A DNA stretch of 64,000 nt. It comes from a bacterium (lineage in GTDB: Bacteria; Patescibacteriota; Minisyncoccia; Phycocordibacterales; JAGLPS01). The first letter of the stretch is position 1. Every line of letters begins with the position of its first letter. Below the pieces are notes generated by a model. It made no database searches and was not told the origin of the DNA. It saw nothing but the letters and a program-made list of their open reading frames with translations. The DNA is taken from assembly GCA_030690305.1 (NCBI GenBank), contig JAUYHB010000027.1, positions 79,670 through 143,669 on the forward strand, in the 5' to 3' direction. Position numbers and translations under genes: made by a program. Of the stretch, positions 4,345-28,517 are shown piece after piece.

Positions 4345-6839
4345 AATTTTTTGATGACAAACGATTCAATACCTCGGTCGTCAATAATTTTGATGGCAAC
4401 TTTTTTATGTTCGCCCACCTTAAACGGCAGTGATTCAACACCAATAAACGAATCCATTACTTCTTCGTTCACCGCGCCGTTCAAAGTTTTCGCAAGACCA
4501 GTCCAATCCCGCTTTTCATCTTTCATTGGGAAGAAAACTTGAACGGGTAAAATACTTTGCTCGTCGTAATCAGTATCCAACATCCACATCGCAATCCGAG
4601 TGGTATCGCCGGAATCAATCTCGCCCGTAACGGGATTATAGTAATCAAATCCATTAACGCGCACCTTGTATGTGCCGCCTTTGCTTTTAACAACCTCAAT
4701 GTCCGGCTGGCCAATAAGCCAGTAGCTTTGGCTGGACGAACGCTTCTTGCGTAAATCCGAAGTTAGAAGATCAACGCTCATCTGCGCTTTGAGTATGGAA
4801 ACACCCGGCCATTTCATCTCATCAATATCCTTTGACGCTTCGGGGTCAAAATGAAATGCCGCAAAGATGACGAGTTCCGGTTTATCGGCTAAAATGCGCG
4901 CCTCGTTGATAGCTTCCTCTACTTGGCGTTGCTCAAGCGGGCCGTAATCCGGGCCGAAACTGATAACCGCTTTTTTCTGTTTTCCTTTCTCGTCTAAAAT
5001 TTCACCTTCGGCGTGTAAATACTTTGTCCCCGCCATCGGTTCAATACGAGAAAAATTGATGATACTCCCGCCCACGGCTCGGATACCGGACGACTTCAAC
5101 TCGTCGCGCCATACTGCCTGATTCGCTGTTTCTCCGGTGCGCGCAATGTCTTCGCCGGTTGTAGTAACTTTCTGCTGACTTCCGTCAAATGGTTTAACAC
5201 GAAGTCCGGGAACAGCTTCAACTGTAAATGGACTGGCTACACGGACTTTACTTGTGTCAATTACTGGCTGGTCATAAAGAATTTCCTGTTTGTCTAATTC
5301 ATTGTTTGCGATTGATTTAATTGTGATATGAGGAACTTTCCTATATACAAAACCGCTTCCTACTCCTTCGGTTGGATGAGCAAGTTGATAGTGGTCAAAA
5401 TAAGAAGTCATAAGTCGTTGTTTCGCAAGCGTAATAGCAACGCGCGAGGTGTCGCAAGTTATCCAGCGACGACCCCACTGTTCGGCTACATGAGCAGTAG
5501 TGCCGCTTCCGCATGTTGGGTCAAACACTATATCGCTTGGATCAGTAGTCATCAAAATACATCTTTTCAAAATCTCTTTTGATGTTTGAACGGCATAAAT
5601 CTTTTTTAGTTCGCCAACTGTATCAGTCCAAACATTAGTATATTTACTAACTGGAAAATCATCAAAATAATTTACAAATCTTAATGTGTTGCCGAACGCT
5701 ACCAACCGCTTTGCGGCCTCCAATTTTTTCATACCTTCAAGATTGGTCTTCCAACTCCGATTTCTTCCGGGCTTAAAGGTTCTTCCTTCAAATTCATAAT
5801 CAAAAACACAACTTGCTGTTAAACCTGAAGAAACAAGGTCTGCCGAGCTAAATATTTTACTGCCTTTAGGGAGAAGTGAAGGGTTATGTATTTCCTCGGC
5901 CGATAAACTGCGTCGTTCTCCACTTGGAAGGTGAGCATAACCAAACGCTCCTTCGGTTGAATCTTTCTCTTTAAACAGTTGGCGATATTTAATTTTATTT
6001 CTATCCTTCGCATACCAAAGCAGATAGTTAGCAATACCAGTTAGTCCTTTACTTCCAAGTCCACTTGTTGTTCTAAAAGTAATAAGAGAAAAAAAGTTTT
6101 GACTACCGAATACTTCATCAAGTAATTCTCTGACATGGTGGATGTTTTCGTCTCCAATTTGGACAAAAATTGAACCGGAATCGCTTAACAACTCACGAGC
6201 GAGAAGGAAACGATCTTTCAAATAAGAAAGATAAGAGTGTATACCCAACTCCCATGTATCACGAAACGCTTTAATGGTTTCCGGCTCGGATGGTAAATCC
6301 TCATCTCTGTCCTTAACATCTTTACGATTAACGAACGGCTGAAAATTTGAGTTGTATGTTATACCGAAGGGAGGGTCTACATAAATCATCTGAACTTCGC
6401 CAGCCATACCCTCTTTTTGTAGCAAGCTATTCATCACAAGGAGCGAATCACCAGCGATAAGACGGTTCGTCCAATCTTGCGCGTGATGATAAAACTCAAA
6501 CGCCTTACCAATCGTGAGTTTTTTCTCAAAAGCGTCAAAGAGTGTCGCCTGTTGATTGAGTTCTTCTTCTTTCAAAAATGATTTTACAATACGCATAGGA
6601 TCAATGCGCTCGTGAATATGTAAACTCAAATTGCGGACATTGACTTCGTTGCCTTCTTGTTTACCAGCCCAAGAGAGATACGGATCAATATGCGGATCGT
6701 GCGCGTATTTTGTAATGCCATTCAACTTGTCGGTTTGTGATGACACAAGACCGACCGGCGGATTATTCTTTCGCTTTTTATCCGCGTGTGAATATGCCTC
6801 AACTGATATTCTTTTCTTTTTTGATGCTTTGCGTGGCAT
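4341..6839 (-). CDS. mod: Type III R-M Mod subunit, N6-adenine DNA methyltransferase
   Basis: 832-aa ORF with motif IV IYVDPPFGITYN (DPPF) and AdoMet motif I VFDPTCGSGTTAHVAEQ. It sits immediately upstream of and overlaps res. Confidence 0.8.
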   Translation of the reverse strand: MPRKASKKKRISVEAYSHADKKRKNNPPVGLVSSQTDKLNGITKYAHDPHIDPYLSWAGKQEGNEVNVRNLSLHIHERIDPMRIVKSFLKEEELNQQATLFDAFEKKLTIGKAFEFYHHAQDWTNRLIAGDSLLVMNSLLQKEGMAGEVQMIYVDPPFGITYNSNFQPFVNRKDVKDRDEDLPSEPETIKAFRDTWELGIHSYLSYLKDRFLLARELLSDSGSIFVQIGDENIHHVRELLDEVFGSQNFFSLITFRTTSGLGSKGLTGIANYLLWYAKDRNKIKYRQLFKEKDSTEGAFGYAHLPSGERRSLSAEEIHNPSLLPKGSKIFSSADLVSSGLTASCVFDYEFEGRTFKPGRNRSWKTNLEGMKKLEAAKRLVAFGNTLRFVNYFDDFPVSKYTNVWTDTVGELKKIYAVQTSKEILKRCILMTTDPSDIVFDPTCGSGTTAHVAEQWGRRWITCDTSRVAITLAKQRLMTSYFDHYQLAHPTEGVGSGFVYRKVPHITIKSIANNELDKQEILYDQPVIDTSKVRVASPFTVEAVPGLRVKPFDGSQQKVTTTGEDIARTGETANQAVWRDELKSSGIRAVGGSIINFSRIEPMAGTKYLHAEGEILDEKGKQKKAVISFGPDYGPLEQRQVEEAINEARILADKPELVIFAAFHFDPEASKDIDEMKWPGVSILKAQMSVDLLTSDLRKKRSSSQSYWLIGQPDIEVVKSKGGTYKVRVNGFDYYNPVTGEIDSGDTTRIAMWMLDTDYDEQSILPVQVFFPMKDEKRDWTGLAKTLNGAVNEEVMDSFIGVESLPFKVGEHKKVAIKIIDDRGIESFVIKKL

Positions 6840-8085: not shown

Positions 8086-9399
8086 TTAAATTGTCAACAA
8101 ACTTATACTTCTATCTAATCGTATTCTGAAATTATAAAACATACTTGATGAAGATTGCAAATGCCTCGTTGGGTCAGCAATTATACCCACCATCATTTCC
8201 CTGCCGTTTTTCGATAATACAACCTCACAAAACCATAAATAATGCGGCAAATTTGACTTTACCATTTCCTCAAACCTACTTTTGTCCTTGTCAGATAGAG
8301 TCTTTTTCTTGGGGTTCATTAGAAAATTCTTTAATATACTATTATCCACAATTAAGAATCTTTCTGATTTTACCTCATAACCCTCTTTAAGAAATACACT
8401 TTTTACAAAACGTACATAATTTTTCTTCATATTTGGAAAAGGGATAAAAACTTTTTCCATTTCTGGGACTATCATATACCCATTTGGTTTTATATAATCT
8501 TCGATAGCTTCCCAATTTACTAAATCTACAAAAGATTTGCCTTTCCTAGTATCACCATCCAAATCTTTTTGTTGGAAAAAAGCACCAGAATCATCGTATA
8601 CTAAATATTTTCTTCGGTTGTCTATTCCAAGCGTATGCCCAATTACAGTAATAACATGATCGTTTGACGTTAAAATTATGGGCAATTTACTTTCTATATA
8701 ACTATCCGCCCATTCTCTAAAATATTCTTTATACTTGTTAAAATGTATACTTGAAATTGGAATTTTGGCATTATTAAAAATTTCTATCATGTGATAAATA
8801 GTAATACCCTCGCTGGAGATCATTTTAGTCTTAAACGAGTATCCGCCAACAATGTCAGAAAGTTTTATCAAATTATATTCCAATGTTCTTCTCACAAATT
8901 TTGTAACCATAGCTATAGCAGCATGGGCGCATATTGTGACAACACCATCTTGAGAAAAAAATGGAAAAGTATGAATAATTAATTCTTTTCCACAAATATG
9001 AACAGTTTTTTTATAAGTCATTACATATACATCTTCTCCATACGTCCTCCTAAATTCATGAGCTAACATCTTCCAATTCGGATATATAAATGACAAACTG
9101 GCAGACACCTCACCGATGGGCCGTATATTCGCAAATCCAAGATAGAAATCCGATTCAATAACCTTATCTTTGAAGAAGTGAATTCTTGCTACAAAAGGCT
9201 TGAATTGATATGTTGTGTTTATATAATGCAAAGAAACCATTTCCTTCCATTCTCTCTCGATATACTCATCTTCTAATATAAAAAACTTGGCGTATTTGAT
9301 AATCCTATCTAACCTCGATATAAGATATCTTTTAATTAGTTCTTCAGGGATATTTAGTTTCTTAGCAAGTTCTTGGGATAGTAAGGCTATATGTTGCAT
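8086..9399 (-). CDS. Hypothetical protein with a C39-like (papain-fold) cysteine peptidase domain
   Basis: 437 aa. VTICAHAAIAMV resembles the C39 Cys motif CGxAxLAM. It is followed by His (HVITVIGHTLG) and Asp (YLVYDDSG) in the Cys-His-Asp order. Local GC is very low. Confidence 0.4.
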   Translation of the reverse strand: MQHIALLSQELAKKLNIPEELIKRYLISRLDRIIKYAKFFILEDEYIEREWKEMVSLHYINTTYQFKPFVARIHFFKDKVIESDFYLGFANIRPIGEVSASLSFIYPNWKMLAHEFRRTYGEDVYVMTYKKTVHICGKELIIHTFPFFSQDGVVTICAHAAIAMVTKFVRRTLEYNLIKLSDIVGGYSFKTKMISSEGITIYHMIEIFNNAKIPISSIHFNKYKEYFREWADSYIESKLPIILTSNDHVITVIGHTLGIDNRRKYLVYDDSGAFFQQKDLDGDTRKGKSFVDLVNWEAIEDYIKPNGYMIVPEMEKVFIPFPNMKKNYVRFVKSVFLKEGYEVKSERFLIVDNSILKNFLMNPKKKTLSDKDKSRFEEMVKSNLPHYLWFCEVVLSKNGREMMVGIIADPTRHLQSSSSMFYNFRIRLDRSISLLTI

Positions 9400-9674
9400 T
9401 GGTAAACCTACTTACATTTTATAGTTAGTGACTATAATTTACACAACGGATTACCCGCGCTCTTGGCACAAAGTAATCACATTTAATGAATTTTGGGCAA
9501 GCTATATTATATTAAAAATAAAAAATCTTCACTTTTGCGAGTGAAGATTCAGGATTATTGCACAGTAATAATTTTCTTCCTCAAATTTAGCCCTTAGAGT
9601 ATGCATTCTTATATACTAAAATCTATAATAACTCAACTAATTTTTATTAGGGCAATGTGCACATAAAAAGACAA

Positions 9675-9709
9675 CCCCGACTGAATCTTTAGAAAAGATT
9701 AGCCGGGGG
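9675..9709 (-). terminator. Imperfect hairpin plus T-tract, terminator for the EEP gene
   Basis: CCCCGACTGAATCTT...AAGATTAGCCGGGGG is followed on the minus strand by TTGTCTTTTTATGT. Confidence 0.4.
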
Positions 9710-9829
9710 AAATATAATTTAATTTTAATACCAGCATTCAATCCTGCCAGTTAAATTTTTGTATTAGTTTAACTATAGCACGTATTTCATATTTCCATAT
9801 CTCTTTCTTGCTTATTTTTAGAGGATATT

Positions 9830-10873
9830 CTATCTATGCTCAAAATTATCGGCATCTCTGTTATTCCACAGCAACACAGTTAACGGCAAGTGATCAGAGG
9901 CATATGCGCCATATAACCAAATCCCTTTATTTTCCCTACCCTTAATCTTCTTAGGAATTTTAACTCCCTGTGGCGTTTGCAAATCCTCTTCCCACGCTCT
10001 ATGCACATGCGCCGAGTCTGGAACGATATCCTCATCGCTATAAATGTCCTGATACCACATCGTGTCATATTGGCTCTTGGATAGCCTGCCCCTCGCCTTA
10101 TCAAGTGTTGTCACGTCTTTCGATATTAAGACGTGCTTTATGTTGGGCAGACTTTTAAAAGAGTCCCACTCTTTCTTGTCTACGTTCGTATTGAAGTCGC
10201 CCATGAGGAAAACGTCATTTTGGCTCTCGTCTGAATCCTGTACCGTCTTGTATACGAAAACAAGTCTTCCTATTTCGTCTTTTCTCCATTGTGCGGCGGG
10301 CGAAGCGGCATGAATGGTAATAATGGTAAAGTCGAAATTGCCGTCTTTTGCTCTAAATGAGGCAATAAAAGGCTCTCTGTCAAACTGCCTTTCTTGATCG
10401 TTCAATCCGGACATTTTATTTTCAGATTCATTCCACACATGGGCCGAATCTTTAACAAGTTCAATTTTTGACTTTCTGTAAAGGAAAGCATAATACTCGA
10501 AGGTACTGAATGCCTTGCTTTTTTCAGCGTTTGCCGTTCCATTCGGCTCGGGACTGACAACATAGTCCCAATCTTCACCGAGATGAGCAACTATCTCCTG
10601 CAAGGCTTCTATACCCTTTCCGCCTAAAGGGTTATTTTTTGTGGCGCCGGTATTCATGACTTCTTGAATCGCAACGATGTCATAATTCTTGAGGATTATT
10701 GCTGCATTTTTCACTTGATACGGATTGTCTTTGCCGAGCTTCTCGATGTTAAAGGTGCCGATCCGGATTTGAGTAGTTGAGCTAAGGGAAACAGAAGGAT
10801 CAGAGTAGCAAACAGTATTTGGAGAAACAAAAAGGAGGGCAAGGAAAATGATCGTGCATATAAATTTACGCAT
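9830..10873 (-). CDS. Secreted endonuclease/exonuclease/phosphatase (EEP, DNase I-like) family protein
   Basis: N-terminal signal peptide MRKFICTIIFLALLFVSPNTVC. EEP motifs IRIGTFNIEKLG and YDIVAIQEV. Confidence 0.6.
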   Translation of the reverse strand: MRKFICTIIFLALLFVSPNTVCYSDPSVSLSSTTQIRIGTFNIEKLGKDNPYQVKNAAIILKNYDIVAIQEVMNTGATKNNPLGGKGIEALQEIVAHLGEDWDYVVSPEPNGTANAEKSKAFSTFEYYAFLYRKSKIELVKDSAHVWNESENKMSGLNDQERQFDREPFIASFRAKDGNFDFTIITIHAASPAAQWRKDEIGRLVFVYKTVQDSDESQNDVFLMGDFNTNVDKKEWDSFKSLPNIKHVLISKDVTTLDKARGRLSKSQYDTMWYQDIYSDEDIVPDSAHVHRAWEEDLQTPQGVKIPKKIKGRENKGIWLYGAYASDHLPLTVLLWNNRDADNFEHR

Positions 10874-10887
10874 ACGAACAAAATCTT

Positions 10888-11484
10888 TCAGACTCTATTA
10901 TCCAGCCAGACATCATTAACCACATTGAACAGTTCCTGATTGTCGTAATCCGCAGGCAACACATTCTCCGCGAGTTTATTAAACAGGTTGTATCCCTCTT
11001 TATAAAATCCGTTGGCAATCAGTTCCGAACAAATCAATCTCTTTCGGCTATTAAAAATGTTCCTCATATAAAGCAAAATTTTCCCCAGCCATGCGGCAAT
11101 GGGAAACCATAGGAGCTGGAGCTTGTCATAAGGGATATTATTCATGGTTGCCCACCACAACGTTACTTTAATCCTGTCATTGTCATCAATGTAGTTTTTT
11201 CTGACAACTCTTATTTCAATACCTTTATCCACGTAATCTTTCTGTAAATTGCAAACCCTTGACTGTGGGATTTGACCTTCAACCAAATCATACCCGCCCA
11301 TGCTTCCCGCAACATGAGTCCATTTGCTGCTTTCGCCGTAACCAAGCTTATGTTGAACCACAATGGTTGCTTTCGTGCCGCTCGCCACCAATATCACGTC
11401 GCCTATTTTGATTTTGTTGGGATCAATCTGTTTCTTGGAGATATTATCTTGCGACATAAGCCCTCTTTCCCACCCACAAAACAA
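10888..11484 (-). CDS. LRAT/NlpC-P60 superfamily (H-box / NCEHF-like) protein
   Basis: GDVILV resembles LRAT GDLI. It is followed by His in WTHVAG and Cys in RLICSELIANGF, resembling the NCEHF motif. Confidence 0.4.
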   Translation of the reverse strand: MFCGWERGLMSQDNISKKQIDPNKIKIGDVILVASGTKATIVVQHKLGYGESSKWTHVAGSMGGYDLVEGQIPQSRVCNLQKDYVDKGIEIRVVRKNYIDDNDRIKVTLWWATMNNIPYDKLQLLWFPIAAWLGKILLYMRNIFNSRKRLICSELIANGFYKEGYNLFNKLAENVLPADYDNQELFNVVNDVWLDNRV

Positions 11485-14331: not shown

Positions 14332-15075
14332 TTAAAACATCCCTCCCACTTGGACTGCCAATCTGTCCGCTATGGCCGCGCAGGCTTTCGCTCTGTCGAT
14401 GTTCGTCTGCTTTGCCGTGACCACGATGCGCGTCCTATATTCCTGATGTCCTGAATCAACTTGCCTCTCCGACGTAAAGCTGGTCGCGGAGCCGTAGGTG
14501 GTATTGGTCTTCATCATGCCTTTGACTCCCCCCTCGACTCTTTCTTTGATTTGAATGTCTACCGCGCCCAAATAGGTATCGACATGGATCATCGACCCCA
14601 CGACTCCGCCGATGACAGACCCCACAAGGGTGCCTGCCACTCCTCCGGCAACGGGGCCTCTCCAGCCGCCTCTGACATTGGAACCCGCCAACCCGCCGCC
14701 AAAGCCTCCGACAAGCATGCCCTCGGCGGTCAAGTCCTGCTTTTGCGCGCCCATATAAAGGAGATTGGCCTGAAGGATATGACCTGCTTTGCTCACATCG
14801 TTAGTTACGACATACCCTCGGGAGGAAATTTTGCTTTTTAACAGCTCCGCGAAGTCTATCTCCTGAAAATCCGAGGTATTGGTGACCCGGACAAAAATGC
14901 TGTTGTTCTTGGCGAGACTTTCGGGATCGATGAATATCGTCTCCGACATTTGTGCGGAGAGGGTCATCTGCCGGTTGCTTATCGCTTCTATGGTCCCGGC
15001 GCATCCGGAAAAAGTAACTGCTACAGAGACCAATAAAAAACATACGACTGCGAATCTCGGAATTTTGTAATACAT
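14332..15075 (-). CDS. traT: TraT complement-resistance / surface-exclusion lipoprotein homologue
   Basis: 247 aa with lipobox FSGC. It aligns by eye with F-plasmid TraT: QMSETIFIDPES vs QMSETIWLEP, ILQANLLYMGAQKQDL vs IQANVLKADKMDL, and the Gly-zipper segment YRTRIVVTAKQTNI vs YQTRVVSNANKVNL. Confidence 0.65.
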   Translation of the reverse strand: MYYKIPRFAVVCFLLVSVAVTFSGCAGTIEAISNRQMTLSAQMSETIFIDPESLAKNNSIFVRVTNTSDFQEIDFAELLKSKISSRGYVVTNDVSKAGHILQANLLYMGAQKQDLTAEGMLVGGFGGGLAGSNVRGGWRGPVAGGVAGTLVGSVIGGVVGSMIHVDTYLGAVDIQIKERVEGGVKGMMKTNTTYGSATSFTSERQVDSGHQEYRTRIVVTAKQTNIDRAKACAAIADRLAVQVGGMF

Positions 15076-17893: not shown

Positions 17894-18898
17894 TTAAATT
17901 AAATCAACCTCTTTAAAATTAACCTTCTCTTCTTCAATCTGATAAGTTAACAAGGCGATATCCAATTGATTCAAAATTCCCTTAATCCCTTTAATACCTT
18001 TTTCATCAGGGAGAACTAATATCTTCCGGGCTTTCTGATGCCCTGCAGCATGGAAAACCAGCTGACCTATGGCCGTATATATGCTTTGTCTGTCCAAGGA
18101 TGATTTTATTTCGTATATGCTTAATATTTGACCATCGGATAGGACTCCCAAATCAATATAACGATTATTGAATATTTCACACTTAGAAGATTGATGTTTC
18201 GTTCGAACATATTTTTCAAGCTCGTTCACGACGAAACCATGGTATGACTCATATTCAATATTACGATGAAGATTCGCTTTTCTTCTGCCAAACGATTCAG
18301 GCGAAAATCCTAATAAAATTTTCTTATCAATGCCTCTAAGGTGATCATTGTTCTTAACGGCCGCCTTAAAATTAGCGACCTCTTGGACAAAATTGTACAA
18401 ACTCCTAAGAAAATATTTCGAATTAAAAGAGGCGATCAATATGGCCTCCTCGATTTTACCCTGATTATCAATGATGTCGCACCGTTCTCCTCTATACCAA
18501 TCTATAAATGCATTTTTCCCTATTCCGGGACTTCCCCCTCCTATCTTTCCTCTGCTTAAAACATAACAATTCCCAGTCTCATCCTTGGCAAAAATCCCCG
18601 ACAATCTTTTTTCTACACCTTGCAATGGAATGTTGATTTCTACGGCGATAGTTTGCATTCCTTTTCTGCTCACTCCCAATCCGAATCCATTCCAATATCT
18701 TGGGATAGCGACATCTTTTTTCATTAAGATTTTCGTGGCAAACCAAAGTCTATCGTCATAATAAACCGTTTCTTGAAAATTCCCACCTGGATGTCCGATT
18801 ACCAATCTCTCGACGTTATTCAATTTGGTCTTGAGTATTTTCAACATTTCCTGCTGGCAATTCGCCAACTCGTTTCTATCAGAAATAACCTTTAACAT
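17894..18898 (-). CDS. Hypothetical protein with a C-terminal PD-(D/E)xK nuclease-like motif
   Basis: 334 aa. The C-terminus DLGVLSDGQILSIYEIKSSLDRQSIYTAIGQL shows a D...EIK...QxxY pattern. Confidence 0.35.
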   Translation of the reverse strand: MLKVISDRNELANCQQEMLKILKTKLNNVERLVIGHPGGNFQETVYYDDRLWFATKILMKKDVAIPRYWNGFGLGVSRKGMQTIAVEINIPLQGVEKRLSGIFAKDETGNCYVLSRGKIGGGSPGIGKNAFIDWYRGERCDIIDNQGKIEEAILIASFNSKYFLRSLYNFVQEVANFKAAVKNNDHLRGIDKKILLGFSPESFGRRKANLHRNIEYESYHGFVVNELEKYVRTKHQSSKCEIFNNRYIDLGVLSDGQILSIYEIKSSLDRQSIYTAIGQLVFHAAGHQKARKILVLPDEKGIKGIKGILNQLDIALLTYQIEEEKVNFKEVDLI

Positions 18899-18955
18899 AT
18901 CGCATCCAGTCGTATGTCCGTCGATTCTTCTTTATTTGAATTTTATAACTCTAAT

Positions 18956-19546
18956 TCACTCTTTTAGAAAAAATATTAGTAAAAATGCAAAGACAAACAA
19001 AACAATTGCAGGTGGCAGTATTTGAAAAATGTTGTATATCAAAAATTCGGATTTGCTTATTTCAGGGTTTATCGTGATTACTTTAAAAGAAAATGTGATA
19101 AATGAAATTAAAGCAAGAAATAAACTAAAAAGAGCTATTATATTTGCTGCATGCTTGCGCATGTATTTATTGGCTGCTTTATCAATCTTTGAATCTAAAA
19201 CCTTGCTATATTTCAGTAGCTCCTCTGCCAAAACATTTGTATCTTCAGCCCTAGCTAAATCCCGATCCATTAAGCGCGGCACTTTAACCCCGTTAATCTC
19301 TATATTAGAATTTATCGGACTATCGGCATATGATTTAAGAGCGTATGTTGTAACAATAATATCTGTCTCTTCTATGCGATGCACAGTTTCAACTATTTTT
19401 TTCTCGCCAACCAACTGCTTAAGGTATTGTTTCACTTCATCCGCACTATGAATTGACAGATCGCGGAGAATTATCCCTTCTCGAACCCAGTTGGGACCTC
19501 GTTCTGATAGACATTTAATAATATCATTTCGTATTTCTCTGCCCAA
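18956..19546 (-). CDS. Hypothetical protein, N-terminal winged-helix-like domain plus C-terminal transmembrane segment
   Basis: 196 aa. The hydrophobic C-terminus is IIALFSLFLALISFITFSFKVITI...ILPPAIVLFVFAFLLIFFL. Confidence 0.35.
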   Translation of the reverse strand: MGREIRNDIIKCLSERGPNWVREGIILRDLSIHSADEVKQYLKQLVGEKKIVETVHRIEETDIIVTTYALKSYADSPINSNIEINGVKVPRLMDRDLARAEDTNVLAEELLKYSKVLDSKIDKAANKYMRKHAANIIALFSLFLALISFITFSFKVITINPEISKSEFLIYNIFQILPPAIVLFVFAFLLIFFLKE

Positions 19547-19564
19547 AATTTCCCCTTAACTTTA

Positions 19565-22500
19565 TTAACCCCTGCTTGCTAAAAATTCCTTATTAACATC
19601 TAAATGTTCCTTTATTGATTGTTCAACACTGTCCGCGCATCTTTTCAATAAATTACTTAGAGCTCCCAGAGAAGTTTTTTTCTGCATCTCTTCGTAAATT
19701 CGCTTTTTTTCCAAAAGGGCTGGTGGAGCTTGACCACCAGAAGAAGACCATCCACCCTCAGGATATGTTTTCGAAAATAACAAAGAACGAATTGTCTTTA
19801 AATTATCACTCTTGATTCCTTCTTCAGAGATTCTTAAGAATAAATCAACAGTTTCACCGTTTAGTGGGAGGTATTGAGCACAAATCAATATCTCGTTAAT
19901 TTGCTTCTTTTGAACCAGTTCATTAATATATTCTGTTATATAAAGCTGATTTGTTTTATTGTTACGGGCGAATAAAATTGGCTTTAGTATTTTCTGAACG
20001 TCATAATATTCCACTCCTTCAGAATAAATATTATGCCATTCCAGAGATTGGGAAAGAAATTTCCTATAATCCTCGTAGGATTGAATTGATCCGCTCAAAT
20101 GTTTTATTCCATCATAAGGTATCGCCTCGAATTCGGCTCGTTTGTTATGCGTCTTAGATTCCTTAAGGCGATAATCAATGAAAGCAATTAATTCATCCAC
20201 ATTTCCAATACAAAATTCCACAATTTCCTGATCGTGCCATTCCAGCTCAGGCCTATCTTTTATTAAATCGTAGAGGGCTTTGACTAACTTGTTGATATCT
20301 TTGTGCTTCTTAAAATCATCCTTTAGTGAGTGGGTAAGAAATGAAACGTTGTCAACAAACTGATTATCGATATTTTTAATTTCATTTAACGCCAATAATA
20401 ATAATCCCATCAAGTCATCAACATTCTTATTTTCCTTGAAAACGAAATAAAGGTTTCGCACTACTTTGCTTATTATTTTGTCATTACCGCACCCAATGAG
20501 TTTTCTTGACCAATCCGATCGTTCTCTTGGTTGCTTTATTGTAATCAAATGTAACAATGTGCTGATTCGCTCATCTGTCGCCTTATTAATATCTGACAGT
20601 ATCTCGTTAGCTAACCGTTGCAGATGATTAGGATCAAGGTTCGTTAATGCACCGTCAATTTCCATTTTGAAATAATCGGGTATTAATTGCCATAATGTAG
20701 TGTTATCCCGAATTTCTCTAAAAGCGTCTGAATTCAACTCAACCCAACAATAAATAAAAATGGGATATAGATGTGAATTTAAAGGTTCAATCTTCTTGGC
20801 AAAACGATTTACAAATTTTGCTATCAACTCGGCAGAGCTATATTCCTGATTTAATTGTTGGACAGGCCTTGAAAAATCATGTGATTTCAAATACCATTTT
20901 TTTGACATTACATTCTCAACTAACCACGGCCATTTATTAGCTTGGGGAGCATCCTTTGAAACTTCTTCAAAACTCTGGACAATATCTAACCGAGAGGAAA
21001 AATATCGAAAAAGCTCGTATTCAGGACTTCGAGGAATACTTTTTAATAACTCAGTAATCTTTTCTATTCCCGGAGCATCTTGGGCCCACCAGTGCAAGAA
21101 CAAATCCTCTATGTCGCTCAACAGACGAAAATCTGTATTAGGATGAATCAAGCGGCCAATGTCATCAATAATTTTAATTTTTTCTTGAACAAATCTTTCG
21201 GCTAAAGGTAGCTGAGAAGGTGAGACATGGCCCATCCTCGTTTTGCCAATGTCGCTTACAACGTCAATTGCGCAAAGCTGGTACTCAATATTGGCATGTG
21301 TAAGCAATTTATCTAATAACGCCATTGCTGCATCTCTCATTTGTAATACTTTAGGATTATTGGGCAGAGGTCTTTCACCAAATTCCATTTTATCCAAATA
21401 AGAGCGGCTATATTCGTGGGTTGCTGCTAGAACTTCTGACAATGCTGATTTGACCATGTCCGCTCTATTTTTATTCGGCTCATCCAACCACTTCTCCATT
21501 AGATTCAGCATCTCAACAATAGAATCAACATCATTTCTTAAAGGAGAAACGCAATCTTTAATTAAAGTTAACGGTTTATAGTTGTCATATGTTCCCTTCA
21601 TTTCTAATGAATATAATCTTTCAATTAAGCATAAAATTTCATTTCGGTATTTGTGGCTTCTGATTAAACCATCAATGGCCGGGCCATAATCATCTGTAGA
21701 AAGCAATACAACGCGATAATCATCGGGATAAAGGAAGCTAGTTTCTTGGGGAGGGGGAAAGTCAAAATATGTATTTATTAAATCAAGACAACCTTTGGGT
21801 ATAAATTCGACAACATTTTTTAACCATTCCAGTCTTTCTCTTCTTTCAGTCCCCGAAGTATCTTTAGCCTTGTCGATCCACTCGTTTATAAATTCCTCTA
21901 ACATAGCTGAAATAATGTTAGCTTGACCATATTTAAATGTGGCTCCCAAATTAACAAAGATATTTTTCGAAAACAGAGGCATCCATTGCAAAACTAGGTT
22001 TTTCAAGTACTCCTTACTTAACTGTTCTAGCTTATACAATAAGTAAACATCGCCTCGCATGTCAGGTGAAAATCGAATTGCGCGGCCGACTTGCCGTAAT
22101 ATATTAGACTGAACCAGCCGATCAATGGCCTTTTTTATAAGATCACTACTTTTATTTAACTGTTTAGCTATTTCGTCAATCGTTCCCTGATTATCCTTAT
22201 TAAAAGGCACAATACATGCTAGATTTAAAAGAAGTTCATCCGCGCCGTCTTGAAAAACATCAGCAAGTGACTTCTTTGCATCAACAATAATATCTTCAAT
22301 TATTTCAGCTTTAATTTTAGAAAAGTCTTTAATCCCATCCCCCCTAATACGCTTTCCGATAAGAACAATAAAGTATGGATTAGGAAAGTCATGCACAATG
22401 ATTTCCTCATCGTTAACTCTATCTTTATTTGCACAGGCACGAAGCAGTTTCAATAAATCATCCTTAGGCCACTCATTAATTTTCAGAACAGTGGTAAACC

Positions 22501-23416
22501 CGCTCGCCCTAAACTCTTGTATTCTATCTTGCAAAATATAAATTCCAGATGTCCTTAAGCTAAGCACAACTTTGATATCCACACCGCTTTTAGTTAAAAA
22601 GGCCAAAAGAGGATTTAAAGTATTTAAATCACGGTCTGCATCGTCAAGAATTAATAAGTATTTCTGTTTAGGGTCAATTTCTTCTTGTATGGCAGCTTCA
22701 AAAGATCGATAACCCGTTTTAAGCATCCATGGCTGCCGAGTGGGGTCATACTCATATGCCAAAGTTGCTATTTCTCGCAGCAAATGCGATTTGCCAAAGC
22801 CGCCGGGTGCGTGAACAACAAATAATTGGTGCTTATCTGAAGCCATAAACTTTTGAAATTCTTCTATATAAGATTTAAATGCAGTGATCTCATGGGCAGG
22901 GACATCAATTAACTGCTTCTCTAAATCATCAAAATATAGACTGGCGGGGACTAATAACGGATGCTGTGGATCACCGAAATAAGAATTTCTAAGAAAGGGC
23001 TGTCGCTCAATTCTAATTTTTAGATTTTCTCTATGCCAAACATGTAGTGATTTTATTTCCTTGGGTTTTAAATTTTCCAAAGCCTTGACTTGGTCAACCC
23101 TTAATTCTGCAGTGGTAGCAATGCGAAGGTGCTCAACCTTGTTTTTAATTGCCTTGTCGATTTCCTTACTAATTTCCGACTTTAAATGACCCTCTGCTTC
23201 ACTAAAATTCTTTTGCGTCCATTTTGATTGAATGGAAAATAAACCCTCTAAATTCTCGCTAGGGTAAAACCCTTCATAATAACCATCCCAGCCGTTATCA
23301 AAACCAATGTAAGGACTCGAAGGAATAAAAGCTGGCGAGTTACATTCAATTGCGAATAAGTGATTAACCAATCTTTGAAAATCTTTTTCGTTAGTTATTT
23401 TTCCCAGATCTACCAT
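19565..23416 (-). CDS. Giant STAND-type P-loop NTPase with an N-terminal Mrr-like restriction-endonuclease motif and a ~900-aa C-terminal helical region (Avs/AVAST-like antiviral NTPase candidate)
   Basis: 1283 aa. N-terminus GFDNGWDGYYEG...GLFSIQSKW matches the Mrr_cat DxGxDG...QxK pattern. Walker A HAPGGFGKSHLL. Walker B YLLILDDADRD (hhhhDD). The remainder is long and alpha-helical. Confidence 0.5.
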   Translation of the reverse strand: MVDLGKITNEKDFQRLVNHLFAIECNSPAFIPSSPYIGFDNGWDGYYEGFYPSENLEGLFSIQSKWTQKNFSEAEGHLKSEISKEIDKAIKNKVEHLRIATTAELRVDQVKALENLKPKEIKSLHVWHRENLKIRIERQPFLRNSYFGDPQHPLLVPASLYFDDLEKQLIDVPAHEITAFKSYIEEFQKFMASDKHQLFVVHAPGGFGKSHLLREIATLAYEYDPTRQPWMLKTGYRSFEAAIQEEIDPKQKYLLILDDADRDLNTLNPLLAFLTKSGVDIKVVLSLRTSGIYILQDRIQEFRASGFTTVLKINEWPKDDLLKLLRACANKDRVNDEEIIVHDFPNPYFIVLIGKRIRGDGIKDFSKIKAEIIEDIIVDAKKSLADVFQDGADELLLNLACIVPFNKDNQGTIDEIAKQLNKSSDLIKKAIDRLVQSNILRQVGRAIRFSPDMRGDVYLLYKLEQLSKEYLKNLVLQWMPLFSKNIFVNLGATFKYGQANIISAMLEEFINEWIDKAKDTSGTERRERLEWLKNVVEFIPKGCLDLINTYFDFPPPQETSFLYPDDYRVVLLSTDDYGPAIDGLIRSHKYRNEILCLIERLYSLEMKGTYDNYKPLTLIKDCVSPLRNDVDSIVEMLNLMEKWLDEPNKNRADMVKSALSEVLAATHEYSRSYLDKMEFGERPLPNNPKVLQMRDAAMALLDKLLTHANIEYQLCAIDVVSDIGKTRMGHVSPSQLPLAERFVQEKIKIIDDIGRLIHPNTDFRLLSDIEDLFLHWWAQDAPGIEKITELLKSIPRSPEYELFRYFSSRLDIVQSFEEVSKDAPQANKWPWLVENVMSKKWYLKSHDFSRPVQQLNQEYSSAELIAKFVNRFAKKIEPLNSHLYPIFIYCWVELNSDAFREIRDNTTLWQLIPDYFKMEIDGALTNLDPNHLQRLANEILSDINKATDERISTLLHLITIKQPRERSDWSRKLIGCGNDKIISKVVRNLYFVFKENKNVDDLMGLLLLALNEIKNIDNQFVDNVSFLTHSLKDDFKKHKDINKLVKALYDLIKDRPELEWHDQEIVEFCIGNVDELIAFIDYRLKESKTHNKRAEFEAIPYDGIKHLSGSIQSYEDYRKFLSQSLEWHNIYSEGVEYYDVQKILKPILFARNNKTNQLYITEYINELVQKKQINEILICAQYLPLNGETVDLFLRISEEGIKSDNLKTIRSLLFSKTYPEGGWSSSGGQAPPALLEKKRIYEEMQKKTSLGALSNLLKRCADSVEQSIKEHLDVNKEFLASRG

Positions 23417-23485
23417 TAAATTACTCTCATTTTAATTTTCTTTGCCTATTAGTCTTTCTTGAAATTAAGGTTATTTTAACGCACT

Positions 23486-25442: not shown

Positions 25443-28400
25443 TCACTTCTTCAGCTCTTTGAGTTTCTTTAAAGAATTGGCAACGACCCTCACAATCGCC
25501 TGCTCGCGGATTTCTGCGCTGTCAGTCGGGCGATAATTTGTCTTTAATTTATATCCCTTCACCGTCTTTTCGGTGCTCATTGATTTCATCGCGATTTCCT
25601 GCATGAAGGGTAAGAGTTGTTCGGGAGAAAAGAAACACACCCGCTCTCTATCCTCTTCGGTAACTTCCAACGCGATAGCATTTCTTAACTGTTCGAGTTT
25701 TCTGGGATCAGCGGATATTACCGTAACATATTGGAATCCTGCGGACAAACACTTTTTAACGTTGGCCGCCTCCTGATCCACCGGCGTCGTTACGCAAATC
25801 TGGCAGGCGATGGAACACTCCCCTTTTTGAAGCGCGACATCGACGCTTCCTTTGCCGTCGAGAATGGATTTCTCGATCACGGAAAGATACCCCAAATCAT
25901 CCGCCTGTTTTTTTATGAGAAACTGAAGGTACTTATGCTCCCTGCCTCCTCTCCCCGGCTGAACTGGTATGGGAGATCTCTTTCTCTCGGCAATCGCATG
26001 GATCGGCGCGGATTCTCTTGCAGACGGAATGTCTTCTTTTAGAACTCTGACTTCTTCCTTCTTCGGTTGAACAATTGACGGCTTTTCAACTTCAAATTCC
26101 ATTCTCGGTTCAATTGGCAAGTTCTCTCGTCGAATGCCGTATTTCTCTCTCGAAAGAGCGATGATTCGCCGCCGCTTCTCCTCGGCAATCGTCTTGTCAA
26201 CCCTCGGGAGAAGTGCAGTCGTCAGATTGAAATCAAAGTCGGCCCGCTCGATTCGGCAGACAGCCTCTCCGATTCCCAAGCTCTGCATGTCATCCGACTT
26301 GAAAAAAGAAAAACCGTTCTCCAGTTTTCTCGCGTCTTGGTCTCCCAAACGAAAACAAATGCGGGTACACGCGTTCGCAAGCACCGCGCTCGCGACATCC
26401 GGGTCGCGCGCTTCCAACTGCCGTAATTCCTGATGCGCAAGCGTCAGCCCTAAACGATATTTTCGGGCGCCGGAGAGAATAGATGCCATAGAAGGCGTGG
26501 AGAAATTTTGGAATTCATCGATATACAGCCAGAAGTCCCGCCGGTCTTCTTCTCTTGTTTCTTGTCTCCCCATGACGAGCTGATGAAATTTGGAAACGAG
26601 CAGACTGCCGAAAAGATAGGCGTTCTCCTCTCCGATGGCTCCCTGCGAAAGTCTGGCGAGAAGAATCTTTCCGCCGTTCATGATTTCAGCAAAGTTGAGA
26701 CGGTTTTCTTTTTGGGAAACCATATTGCGGATAGGCTTCGGACGAAGAAAAGCGTCAAGCCGGGTAATAATCGGGGCTTGGGGTCTTCCGGACAAAAGCG
26801 GATAAGCACGGGTCCAATAATAGACAACCTCGGGGTCGGTGACTGTTTTCAAAAATTCCGTTCTGAAGGACGGCTCGATGAGAAACCTGCGCAAATCGGC
26901 TAATGTGCCGCCGCGTGTGCTTTCGAGAAATGCGATCACCGCATTCGAGAATACGGATGTCATCTGGTCTCCCCATGCTGTCGAAAGCCTGCGGAAAACG
27001 GCGACGAGATCGGAGGCAAGCAAATTCTTCTCGAGCTCGGAATGCGCGGACAAAATGTTAAAGCCGATTGCGTATTCTTCATCCGATGGGTCGAGGACGA
27101 TGACGTCCTCGAAGCGTTCTTCCGGAATGTGTTCCAATATGGTGTTCACTAAGTCACCATGCGGATCAAGAACGGCAATTCCTTCCCCATTGCGGATATC
27201 CTGCAAAATGAGATTAAGCAGCAACGTGCTCTTGCCGGTACCACTCGCGCCGATTACATGCGTATGACGCACTCTTTGGTTCGAGTTTAAGGTAACCATT
27301 CGAGTCTCGCCGAGATGAACGTTTTCCCCGAGAACCAAGTTATGGTTTAACGCCGTCTTGGGCGCGGCTTTGGTCTTCTTTGCCCTCCGGTTAAGTTTTT
27401 CCGTTTTCACTGAATCCGAGGGCAGATGGACAATGGAAATTAGTTCATCACTATTGAGAATCATGCCGCTTCTTCTCGATTTCCTTGCGATCAAATCATT
27501 CTCGCGGTCTTCTAAACTATACCGTTCATCGTCTTCAAGCGGAATCAATTCGTTGCCGGTGGGATTTGAAAAGACCGACAGACTTCCCGCAAGCGCCTTC
27601 ACGATCTCTCTTGACCTATCCATTCGCGTGCTTCGCGCGGCAATGCGCACAACTGCGGCGTATAAAGGCTTTTCGACTTTTGTCTTGGCTTGAGCGGCAA
27701 AATCCGGGGCGTTCATAAAGAATGGCGTGCCGTCGGGACAGATGACTGCTTGCAAAATGCTTTCAGCCCACGGCGCGCAAACCGGCTCGAAAATCACCTG
27801 AAATACAGCGGCTTCTCCATCCCGCATCTCCGACAATGCTCCCATGATTCCGATAAATGGATCGGGGTCTAACTTACGTGAAGTTGCAAGCGGCAACATG
27901 AACTCCTGAGCAAGTCCGAAATCAACTATGGCAGTCTCTCCATCGCCTTTGACGCCTCTCCATGAATTTCTAAAGAAATCGGAACGGATAGACATGGAGG
28001 CTTCCGGGAAATGCGCGGAGAGCTGGGCCCTTACCTGACCCAGATCACCATCCGAAACGACGATTTGAACCGTGATCGAATCGGACAAACCGATGATTTC
28101 GAAAACAAGCGGGTGCGCGCAATACGACAGGCTCAACAAAAATTGTTCAAAGACTTCTTTGGAAACTTGGGATGCGGCGGGCAGGGTTATCTGAATCTCA
28201 TGAGGCAAAGTATATGACGCCCTGTTGGATTCGATATCAAGCGGTTCCGCCTCTTCGGGAGCATCGCTCGCCGTATTCTTTCTTCGCGAGACAAGCAGAC
28301 CAAACACTTGATCTGTCACGCTACTTAAAAAAGTCTTCCTGCGTCCGTCATCGATGGAGGGTTGGGTTGAGTAATATCCGGGAAACGATACGAACGGAGG

Positions 28401-28517
28401 CTCAGGAAGAACATGAAAATCAAAAGATTGTATTCCTCTGCCCCCATATTCCCATTCGTAAAACCGGCGGGTGGCTTTGACGATTTGCGATTCGTATATA
28501 TCTTCTGCCAATGCCAT
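25443..28517 (-). CDS. FtsK/HerA-superfamily P-loop ATPase (DUF87/VirB4/VirD4-like core) with a ~400-aa N-terminal and ~240-aa C-terminal domain of unknown function
   Basis: 1024 aa. Walker A HVIGASGTGKSTLLLNL, then VLDPHGD, Walker B LYIDEFQNF, and ARKYRLGLTLAHQELRQL (RKYG...Q..QL motif). No N-terminal TM helix. Separated by 10 nt from the recombinase gene. Confidence 0.5.
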   Translation of the reverse strand: MALAEDIYESQIVKATRRFYEWEYGGRGIQSFDFHVLPEPPFVSFPGYYSTQPSIDDGRRKTFLSSVTDQVFGLLVSRRKNTASDAPEEAEPLDIESNRASYTLPHEIQITLPAASQVSKEVFEQFLLSLSYCAHPLVFEIIGLSDSITVQIVVSDGDLGQVRAQLSAHFPEASMSIRSDFFRNSWRGVKGDGETAIVDFGLAQEFMLPLATSRKLDPDPFIGIMGALSEMRDGEAAVFQVIFEPVCAPWAESILQAVICPDGTPFFMNAPDFAAQAKTKVEKPLYAAVVRIAARSTRMDRSREIVKALAGSLSVFSNPTGNELIPLEDDERYSLEDRENDLIARKSRRSGMILNSDELISIVHLPSDSVKTEKLNRRAKKTKAAPKTALNHNLVLGENVHLGETRMVTLNSNQRVRHTHVIGASGTGKSTLLLNLILQDIRNGEGIAVLDPHGDLVNTILEHIPEERFEDVIVLDPSDEEYAIGFNILSAHSELEKNLLASDLVAVFRRLSTAWGDQMTSVFSNAVIAFLESTRGGTLADLRRFLIEPSFRTEFLKTVTDPEVVYYWTRAYPLLSGRPQAPIITRLDAFLRPKPIRNMVSQKENRLNFAEIMNGGKILLARLSQGAIGEENAYLFGSLLVSKFHQLVMGRQETREEDRRDFWLYIDEFQNFSTPSMASILSGARKYRLGLTLAHQELRQLEARDPDVASAVLANACTRICFRLGDQDARKLENGFSFFKSDDMQSLGIGEAVCRIERADFDFNLTTALLPRVDKTIAEEKRRRIIALSREKYGIRRENLPIEPRMEFEVEKPSIVQPKKEEVRVLKEDIPSARESAPIHAIAERKRSPIPVQPGRGGREHKYLQFLIKKQADDLGYLSVIEKSILDGKGSVDVALQKGECSIACQICVTTPVDQEAANVKKCLSAGFQYVTVISADPRKLEQLRNAIALEVTEEDRERVCFFSPEQLLPFMQEIAMKSMSTEKTVKGYKLKTNYRPTDSAEIREQAIVRVVANSLKKLKELKK

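Follow-up and report, generated by a model that had tools for sequence, protein, structure and literature searches.

Our analysis implies that three closely packed genes in a bacterium of the Patescibacteriota do not form one defence system. The largest of them probably encodes a stand-alone Avs4-like sensor-nuclease, and the two others are independently mobile genes that lie beside it as cargo of low guanine-plus-cytosine (GC) content in a genomic island; we put the probability of this reading at roughly 0.6. The genes were studied in a stretch of 64,000 nucleotides (nt) of contig JAUYHB010000027.1 (assembly GCA_030690305.1, positions 79,670 to 143,669), which we call the window and whose numbering is used below. 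They are consecutive open reading frames (ORFs) of 1283, 196 and 334 amino acids (aa) on the minus strand, which adjoin a serine recombinase and are read in the order STAND gene, 196-aa gene, 334-aa gene, with intergenic gaps of 18 and 57 nt. A first-pass annotation of this DNA had described them as close co-directional genes, which is correct, with spacings of 19 to 58 nt, which is not, and had proposed a fixed partnership of all three.

We investigated this proposal in 80 loci with relatives of the STAND protein, taken from metagenomes, and in 55 loci with relatives of the 334-aa protein, taken from genomes, by searching all their ORFs with the profiles of both families. A 334-family ORF was present in none of the 80 STAND loci, 39 of which extend at least 2 kb downstream, and STAND was present in none of the 55 334-family loci, 40 of which extend at least 4.5 kb upstream. 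The profile of the 196 family, searched against all ORFs of at least 40 aa of the fetched loci, found matches in loci L138 and L044 only. These loci were retrieved by peptide patterns, with which divergent members were possibly missed, their genes were called by a crude longest-ORF heuristic and many of the contigs are short. The sole other locus with all three genes is the groundwater contig L138, whose collinearity with the window begins at the 3' end of the recombinase and reaches into the gene of a 353-aa protein, at 86% nucleotide identity. Such collinearity at this identity means that L138 is the same element and not independent evidence. Therefore, the families occur without each other and the fixed partnership has to be abandoned.

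The comparison with L138 also separates the histories of the three genes. The STAND gene has a synonymous divergence (dS) of 1.04 and the 196-aa gene one of 0.84; in the 334-aa gene dS is 0.12, eight-fold below STAND. The similar values of the first two genes mean that they were inherited together, whereas the value of 0.12 against about 1.0 gives the 334-aa gene a separate and much more recent shared history. Thus, these values speak against one evolutionary history for all three genes and show a mosaic element, whose nuclease gene was recently exchanged as a separate module. The ratios of nonsynonymous divergence (dN) to dS against the same contig are 0.08 for STAND, 0.05 for the 196-aa gene and 0.125 for the 334-aa gene, so that all three genes are genuine and under purifying selection. 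Their GC content is 0.345-0.373, compared with 0.50 for the recombinase and the ATPase gene next to it and 0.44 for the whole window, and because of this gap we read the trio as low-GC cargo of a mobile element.

The 1283-aa protein (Table 1) carries an NTPase core, in which both Walker motifs (A and B) are intact, and a fused N-terminal effector, and in the broad sense it is a probable Avs protein. The core matched Pfam PF25199 (nSTAND_NTPase5) with 37.3 bits at a cut-off of 34; the same family was found in 31/31 aligned homologues, in 10 of which NB-ARC was also touched, and G208, K209 and D258 are invariant in the family alignment. The invariant residues of the N-terminal domain are E24 in the first helix, D40 and D44 ahead of the first core strand, and Q63-x-K65 at the end of the strand that follows it. 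An arrangement of the E...D...QxK kind is typical of Mrr-type nucleases. Pfam Mrr_cat, or any other Pfam Mrr family, was absent in 31 members of the family, and the Mrr-like nuclease is a prediction made from modelled structure and the invariant residues. The first-pass annotation had seen an Mrr-like nuclease fused to a STAND protein, and the PF25199 match, the invariant Walker residues and E24, D44 and Q63-x-K65 bear this out. All clades of the family retain the intact catalytic residues of the nuclease in the alignment.

The STAND family comprises at least 106 clusters or homologues, nearly all of about 1270-1330 aa and alignable from end to end, which come from metagenome-assembled genomes of Omnitrophota, Elusimicrobia, Deltaproteobacteria, Theionarchaea and Methanobacterium, that is, from bacteria and archaea. 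Its C-terminal region of about 800 aa is conserved throughout the family, and in the comparison with L138 no other part has diverged more (dN 0.096, dS 1.17); among PDB sequences, designed helical-repeat proteins matched it marginally at best, and the profiles of the N-terminus and of the full protein matched nothing meaningful there. A possible winged helix follows the NTPase core at aa 377-444, where all matches fall below their thresholds: HTH_Cmi2_C with E 0.001 and 19.8 bits (cut-off 27), and DUF4423, CasR and Sta1 on the same stretch. PADLOC (2023) and NCBIfam hold no convincing model for the protein, and PADLOC likewise none across the family. IMG/VR viral contigs contained no STAND relative, and a plasmid search returned only a 23%-identical P-loop match. 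The most divergent relatives, P0103, P0104 and P0106 (27-33% identity), have an extra N-terminal Xre-type HTH before the nuclease (HTH_3, HTH_31, MqsA-like).

The setting of this family is that of defence genes. HsdR, HsdM, HsdS or a ParB-methylase lies beside STAND in 15 of the 80 family loci, often with STAND inside the hsd operon, while a random gene is found within 5 kb of a defence system at a background of about 1.5% (PMC13581612); set side by side as raw proportions, the two figures indicate enrichment of STAND next to defence genes. Methylases, a type III restriction-modification (R-M) system and the toxin-antitoxin pair BrnT/BrnA lie near STAND in L136 and L137. A recent survey (Lee et al., Nature 2026) described 589 STAND clades, 198 of them defence-associated, and the types Avs1-21; it was seeded with Mrr effectors, and its tree labels nSTAND clades (PMC13581612). 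The family has both features used in that work (PMC13581612), as its protein includes an effector domain and its neighbourhood holds defence genes, and it is most likely already within the catalogue of Lee et al. STAND proteins with an Mrr nuclease are thus a known kind of protein, and this particular nSTAND5/Mrr family is uncharacterised and not in PADLOC 2023.

The 334-aa protein consists of a beta-rich N-terminal domain and a C-terminal nuclease domain. It carries the motif 'IDL...YEIKSSLDRQSIYTAIGQL', and D249, E263, K265, Y274 and Q279 are invariant across 29 homologues, together with H220-G221, L250, G278 and H283 in the same half of the protein. The predicted structure (predicted local distance difference test, pLDDT, 88) has the PD-(D/E)xK fold in the C-terminal part; both the alpha-beta core fold and the conserved D...(D/E)xK signature place the protein in this superfamily, and the D...EIK...QxxY motif pointed out in the first-pass annotation is real. 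The N-terminal domain has its own invariant residues (W52, N70, F72-G73, E87-I88-N89) and an invariant glycine-rich loop (G117, G120-G122, G125, G127). The family counts at least 161 clusters, whose proteins have about 330 aa. Pfam, NCBIfam and PADLOC hold no family for the protein, 29 members gave no relevant Pfam match, and the family profile found nothing meaningful among PDB sequences. A Foldseek comparison of the model with the PDB gave weak NucS/EndoMS-like matches, with no confident match for the N-terminal domain. We also considered type IV restriction, which the database name 'McrB related' suggests, and found no support for it: in these searches no SRA, YTH/EVE or winged-helix reader and no McrB GTPase was recognised in the protein, and the name is an unsupported annotation of the source.

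Genes of the 334 family behave as solo genes. In the 55 loci they have no recurrent neighbour and usually stand 100-400 nt from the flanking genes; members occur on plasmids, two matches come from IMG/VR viral contigs, and two members lie near type I R-M genes (L124, L127). In sphingomonads (L104-L109, L132) the gene has a VirD4/TraG coupling protein and a small CopG-like gene on one side and VirB11/VirB4-like genes on the other, and is thus cargo within a set of genes for conjugative type IV secretion. On a plasmid of Hymenobacter monticola (L154, NZ_CP094537.1 89340-98070) it lies about 1 kb from a SIR2 and Piwi pair, that is, a short prokaryotic Argonaute, with a large DNA methyltransferase also near. 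On a plasmid of Hymenobacter sp. YIM 151858-1 (L153, NZ_CP110138.1 54683-67421) it ends a packed co-directional run of a Ser/Thr kinase and proteins of 529, 1850 and 139 aa, followed by the nuclease of 329 aa, with gaps of 16-19 nt. The order in L153 recalls the giant, small and nuclease genes of the window; the 1850-aa protein was considered as a STAND protein and dismissed, as it has no recognisable STAND domain. Between the window and L138, the 334-aa gene with its upstream spacer (17894-18955 against L138 5033-6094) is 95-96.5% identical.

The 196-aa protein is predicted from hydropathy to bear two C-terminal transmembrane helices, and the hydrophobic stretches are conserved across 40 members of its family, with P178 invariant. 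The alignment further shows an N-terminal module with invariant P18 and N19, an invariant R91 and a central helical stretch. The first-pass annotation had assigned a winged-helix-like N-terminus and a membrane anchor to this protein; the anchor stands, now as two hydrophobic segments, and the winged helix is tentative, with sub-threshold Pfam matches in a few of the 40 members (MCM4_WHD, HTH_69, GMT-wHTH, WH_MCM3_C). An exhaustive HMMER search of 1.84 billion sequences yielded 86 representatives at 50% identity, nearly all of 185-215 aa and matched over the full length; a word-indexed search had yielded near-identical copies only. No convincing PADLOC or NCBIfam match was found for the protein. 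As this holds for all three proteins, the earlier description of the locus as uncharacterised is upheld; a few homologues gave marginal PADLOC matches only (E > 1e-5).

Among 11 independent contexts of the 196 family, the gene follows STAND in two (the window with L138, and L044) and occurs without STAND in nine. In six of the latter its companions are a DUF1122 gene, a xanthine dehydrogenase subunit with toxin-antitoxin genes, a resolvase, ftsZ/radical-SAM genes with an Xre gene, a U32 peptidase and a ribonucleotide reductase; the other three are an HTH_3/HNH region and two short contigs. In L142-L147, L155, L157 and L158 the family genes are often single insertions among housekeeping genes, and they often lie near toxin-antitoxin genes (Phd/ParE, MazE/PIN and, in two cases, HicB) or, in L155 and L158, downstream of a small Xre HTH_3 gene. 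One lineage has the gene downstream of a DUF1122 gene.

Several observations weigh against our reading and have to be set out together. The three genes share one strand, close spacing and low GC, a sequence scan saw no terminator-like site on the coding strand between them, and the trio may be co-transcribed here. The 196 family follows STAND in two distant STAND clades, directly in each case, with a gap of 18 nt in the window (18-19 nt with L138) and of 11 nt in L044, and this adjacency is not easily explained by chance. The STAND protein of the window has no match at E <= 0.1 to the Avs models (Avs1-Avs5) of PADLOC-DB v2.0.0, one of 31 family members gave marginal Avs2 matches (E 7e-4 to 3e-3), and no PDB sequence match connects the protein to Avs3 or Avs4.

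One would argue from the second observation that STAND and the 196-aa membrane protein cooperate as a two-gene module, with the small protein as, for instance, a second effector that disrupts membranes, a membrane tether or a regulator of STAND, and the 334-aa nuclease as a bystander. The STAND proteins of the window and L044 are 34% identical and their small proteins 35% (BLASTP E 5e-11), both families are rare, which makes chance adjacency improbable, and the dS values speak for co-inheritance. Other STAND clades hold a tight partner of their own as well. A downstream gene was called in 54 STAND loci; it is tight and co-directional in 26 of them and not so in 28, and these 26 genes fall in at least 7 unrelated families. 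On a neighbour-joining tree of STAND the partner is clade-specific: a DUF4062-like gene in 12 of the 13 leaves of one clade, the family c54 in another, and none in many. However, of about 57 STAND loci that are informative, only 2 contain the 196 family, and the nine contexts without STAND show the small gene at home elsewhere. The nearest independent STAND relatives (L136 and L137, 55-57% identity) carry an FRG-domain gene in that place, overlapping the STAND stop codon, and the nuclease is intact in every STAND clade, so that an extra effector would be unneeded. We therefore consider a cooperating pair unlikely, though it is the strongest of the alternatives.

A related idea is that the slot downstream of STAND is filled, clade by clade, by unrelated small genes, the 196-aa protein of the window being the true partner in a two-component Avs variant, either as a second effector directed at membranes or as a regulator tethered to one, and the 334 and 196 families being new and widespread single-gene families for defence or exclusion; we offer this as a tentative and rather unlikely suggestion. 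The occupants of the slot are DUF4062-like proteins (possibly winged-helix), FRG-domain proteins, an unassigned 290-aa family and the winged-helix-like membrane protein of the window and L044. Comparison of the 196 family with the DUF4062-like (c4), c54 and FRG partners by hhalign detected no homology, and a common adaptor domain of the partners was dropped for this reason. The FRG-domain genes (PF08867, E 4.6e-22) are located at 9858-10796 in L136 and at 9846-10748 in L137. The DUF4062-like partner, of 260-300 aa, begins 5-12 nt past STAND in L026, L027, L030, L031, L033, L035-L037 and L041-L043; the match of its N-terminus (E 7e-5) is just below the cut-off, and the pair is usually within a type I R-M operon. 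This pair of STAND and a DUF4062-like gene looks like a real two-gene variant.

It could also be that the locus has nothing to do with immunity and serves the mobile element, with STAND as an NTPase for signalling or regulation, the 334-aa protein in maintenance or transfer and the 196-aa protein as an exclusion or membrane factor. The locus is indeed flanked by a serine recombinase and a TraG-like ATPase on one side and by a TraT homologue on the other, the 334 family occurs on plasmids and, in sphingomonads, amid VirD4/TraG-like and VirB11-like type IV secretion genes, and many STAND clades are not related to defence (PMC13581612). Against this stand the nuclease effector of STAND with its intact catalytic residues and its frequent position in type I R-M operons, the absence of STAND from IMG/VR viral contigs, and the member of the 334 family that adjoins a SIR2-Piwi pair and a DNA methyltransferase. 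Such a role of the whole locus appears to us quite improbable. An obligate three-gene system of STAND sensor, membrane adaptor and second nuclease, for which the common strand, the gaps, the low GC, the scan for terminators and the retention of the trio in L138 could be cited, is highly implausible in view of the reciprocal counts of 0/80 and 0/55, the identity of L138 with the element itself, the separate exchange of the 334-aa gene and the lack of a conserved partner of the 334 family in any locus.

Returning to the stand-alone sensor-nuclease, its mechanism can be proposed by analogy, because Avs1-4 bind phage terminase or portal directly (PMC13581612) and the structure 8dgf is that of Avs4 with a portal. 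The C-terminal domain of about 800 aa would bind a phage protein, as in Avs4, after which the STAND NTPase would drive NTP-dependent oligomerisation; this would gather the N-terminal Mrr-like nuclease domains, and the DNA would be cut and the infection stopped. The 334-aa protein would be a separate, self-mobile solo nuclease, possibly with a restriction-type or mobile-element role, whose N-terminal domain probably supplies the recognition of a substrate or target for the PD-(D/E)xK catalytic domain. The 196-aa membrane protein would be a promiscuous small gene product, usually encoded beside other genes, and nothing indicates that STAND would need it.

Table 1. Features of the locus and its surroundings, in window coordinates.
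Feature	Position	Strand	Remarks
1283-aa Avs-like STAND NTPase	19565..23416	-	ATG start; NCBI MDP2705513.1, annotated hypothetical
N-terminal Mrr-like PD-(D/E)xK nuclease domain, aa 1-178	22883..23416	-	predicted catalytic E24, D44, Q63-x-K65
STAND NTPase core, aa 182-290	22547..22873	-	PF25199; Walker A GGFGKS, Walker B LILDD
Possible winged-helix segment after NTPase, aa 377-444	22085..22288	-	sub-threshold matches; putative
C-terminal region of about 800 aa, aa 481-1283	19565..21976	-	presumed ligand sensor
196-aa protein	18956..19546	-	TTG start, preceded by AAGGGGA Shine-Dalgarno
Predicted C-terminal hydrophobic helices of 196-aa protein, aa 131-161 and 167-196	18959-19156	-	Kyte-Doolittle
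334-aa protein	17894..18898	-	ATG start
N-terminal domain of 334-aa protein, aa 1-185	18344-18898	-	beta-rich
C-terminal PD-(D/E)xK nuclease of 334-aa protein, about aa 200-331	17906-18301	-	D249, E263-x-K265, Q271xxY274, Q279
69-nt spacer between recombinase and STAND	23417..23485	-	overlapped by promoter-like site; probable promoter and 5' untranslated region of STAND
Large serine recombinase, 648 aa	23486..25432	-	Pfam Resolvase, Recombinase, HTH_3 x2; directly upstream of STAND
1024-aa TraG/TrwB/HerA-like ATPase	25443-28517		upstream of recombinase; Pfam/PADLOC matches
TraT surface-exclusion lipoprotein homologue	14332-15075
Type III-like R-M pair	1651-6839		897-aa ResIII helicase and 832-aa N6_N4 methylase, 4-nt overlap

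The surroundings of the trio (Table 1) are those of a defence island or mobile element, as the first-pass annotation had held on account of the serine recombinase directly beside the locus; R-M and Tra genes are present in the window. The two C-terminal Xre-type HTH_3 domains of the recombinase (about aa 524-645) are an unusual addition and gave weak PADLOC matches to RmrA and HTH_VI. The 1024-aa ATPase has a long C-terminal extension and matched mad8, a PADLOC model for the MADS system, with E 6.9e-18; it may serve conjugation as a coupling protein or, alternatively, defence. Downstream of the trio follow the 353-aa protein, which belongs to no family, then the TraT homologue and, farther off, the type III R-M pair, whose helicase has a weak C-terminal match to a TnsA-like endonuclease. 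Low GC recurs in another patch at 8086-11484 (0.31-0.33 over 8-10 kb), which holds a family-less 437-aa protein and an Exo_endo_phos protein.

The 69-nt spacer from the recombinase stop to the STAND start is 100% identical to that of L138, against 82-87% identity and a dS of about 1 in the coding DNA on either side. The spacer may have been conserved as a promoter or leader, or recombination may occur there, where the GC content changes. Promoter-like hexamers are found at 23502-23473, and such sites are no commoner here than in shuffled sequences; the spacer occurs once in the window, and a search for repeats or att-like copies of it found none. The scan for promoters and terminators as a whole gave counts no higher than in shuffles and is uninformative on co-transcription. 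No tRNA that could be an integration site is located within the window.

The lesson of this locus is that genes are not a system merely by being closely spaced on one strand of a defence island, and a false lead has been removed. What remains is an uncharacterised Avs4-like family of about 1280 aa with an Mrr-type nuclease and an nSTAND5 NTPase, and two unannotated families, namely nucleases of 330 aa whose N-terminal domain is novel and membrane proteins of 200 aa with a predicted hairpin of two helices. The 334 and 196 families ride variable or mobile regions and are reasonable candidates for screens of single-gene defence. The clade-specific partners of STAND offer a way to ask if Avs-type sensors recruit separately encoded accessory proteins.

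Among the known systems, the STAND protein is closest in architecture to Avs4 (EcAvs4, PDB 8dgf, Avs4 bound to a phage portal). The likeness does not extend to the sequence, as there is no PADLOC Avs4 match and no hidden Markov model match to the Avs chains of the PDB. The NTPase of the window belongs to the Pfam nSTAND5 clade, its protein has about 1283 aa compared with 1540 aa of the Avs4 chain, and the hosts of its family are uncultured bacteria and archaea.

The multi-gene architecture put forward as a variant in the first-pass annotation would not in itself make a new category, since multi-gene Avs systems such as Avs2-trypsin-MBL have already been described. Such systems, including those with protease effectors, resemble our family in having a STAND sensor and a separately encoded downstream partner, and several of our clades likewise keep a tight downstream gene (DUF4062-like, FRG, c54). 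The described multi-gene Avs use a protease which activates a latent effector, whereas STAND here has its own nuclease, and the partners found here have no protease or MBL domains and differ between the clades.

The 334-aa protein, in turn, differs from type IV enzymes of the Mrr/MspJI/AspBHI type, NucS/EndoMS and the Can2-type effectors in that its N-terminal domain shows no recognisable CARF, SRA or winged-helix reader and has an invariant glycine-rich loop, and in that it has no conserved partner methylase. It shares with them the separate N-terminal domain in front of a C-terminal nuclease with the D...ExK...Q arrangement, and its family follows the habit of stand-alone nucleases, since the gene occurs by itself and is often located in DNA that is variable or mobile.

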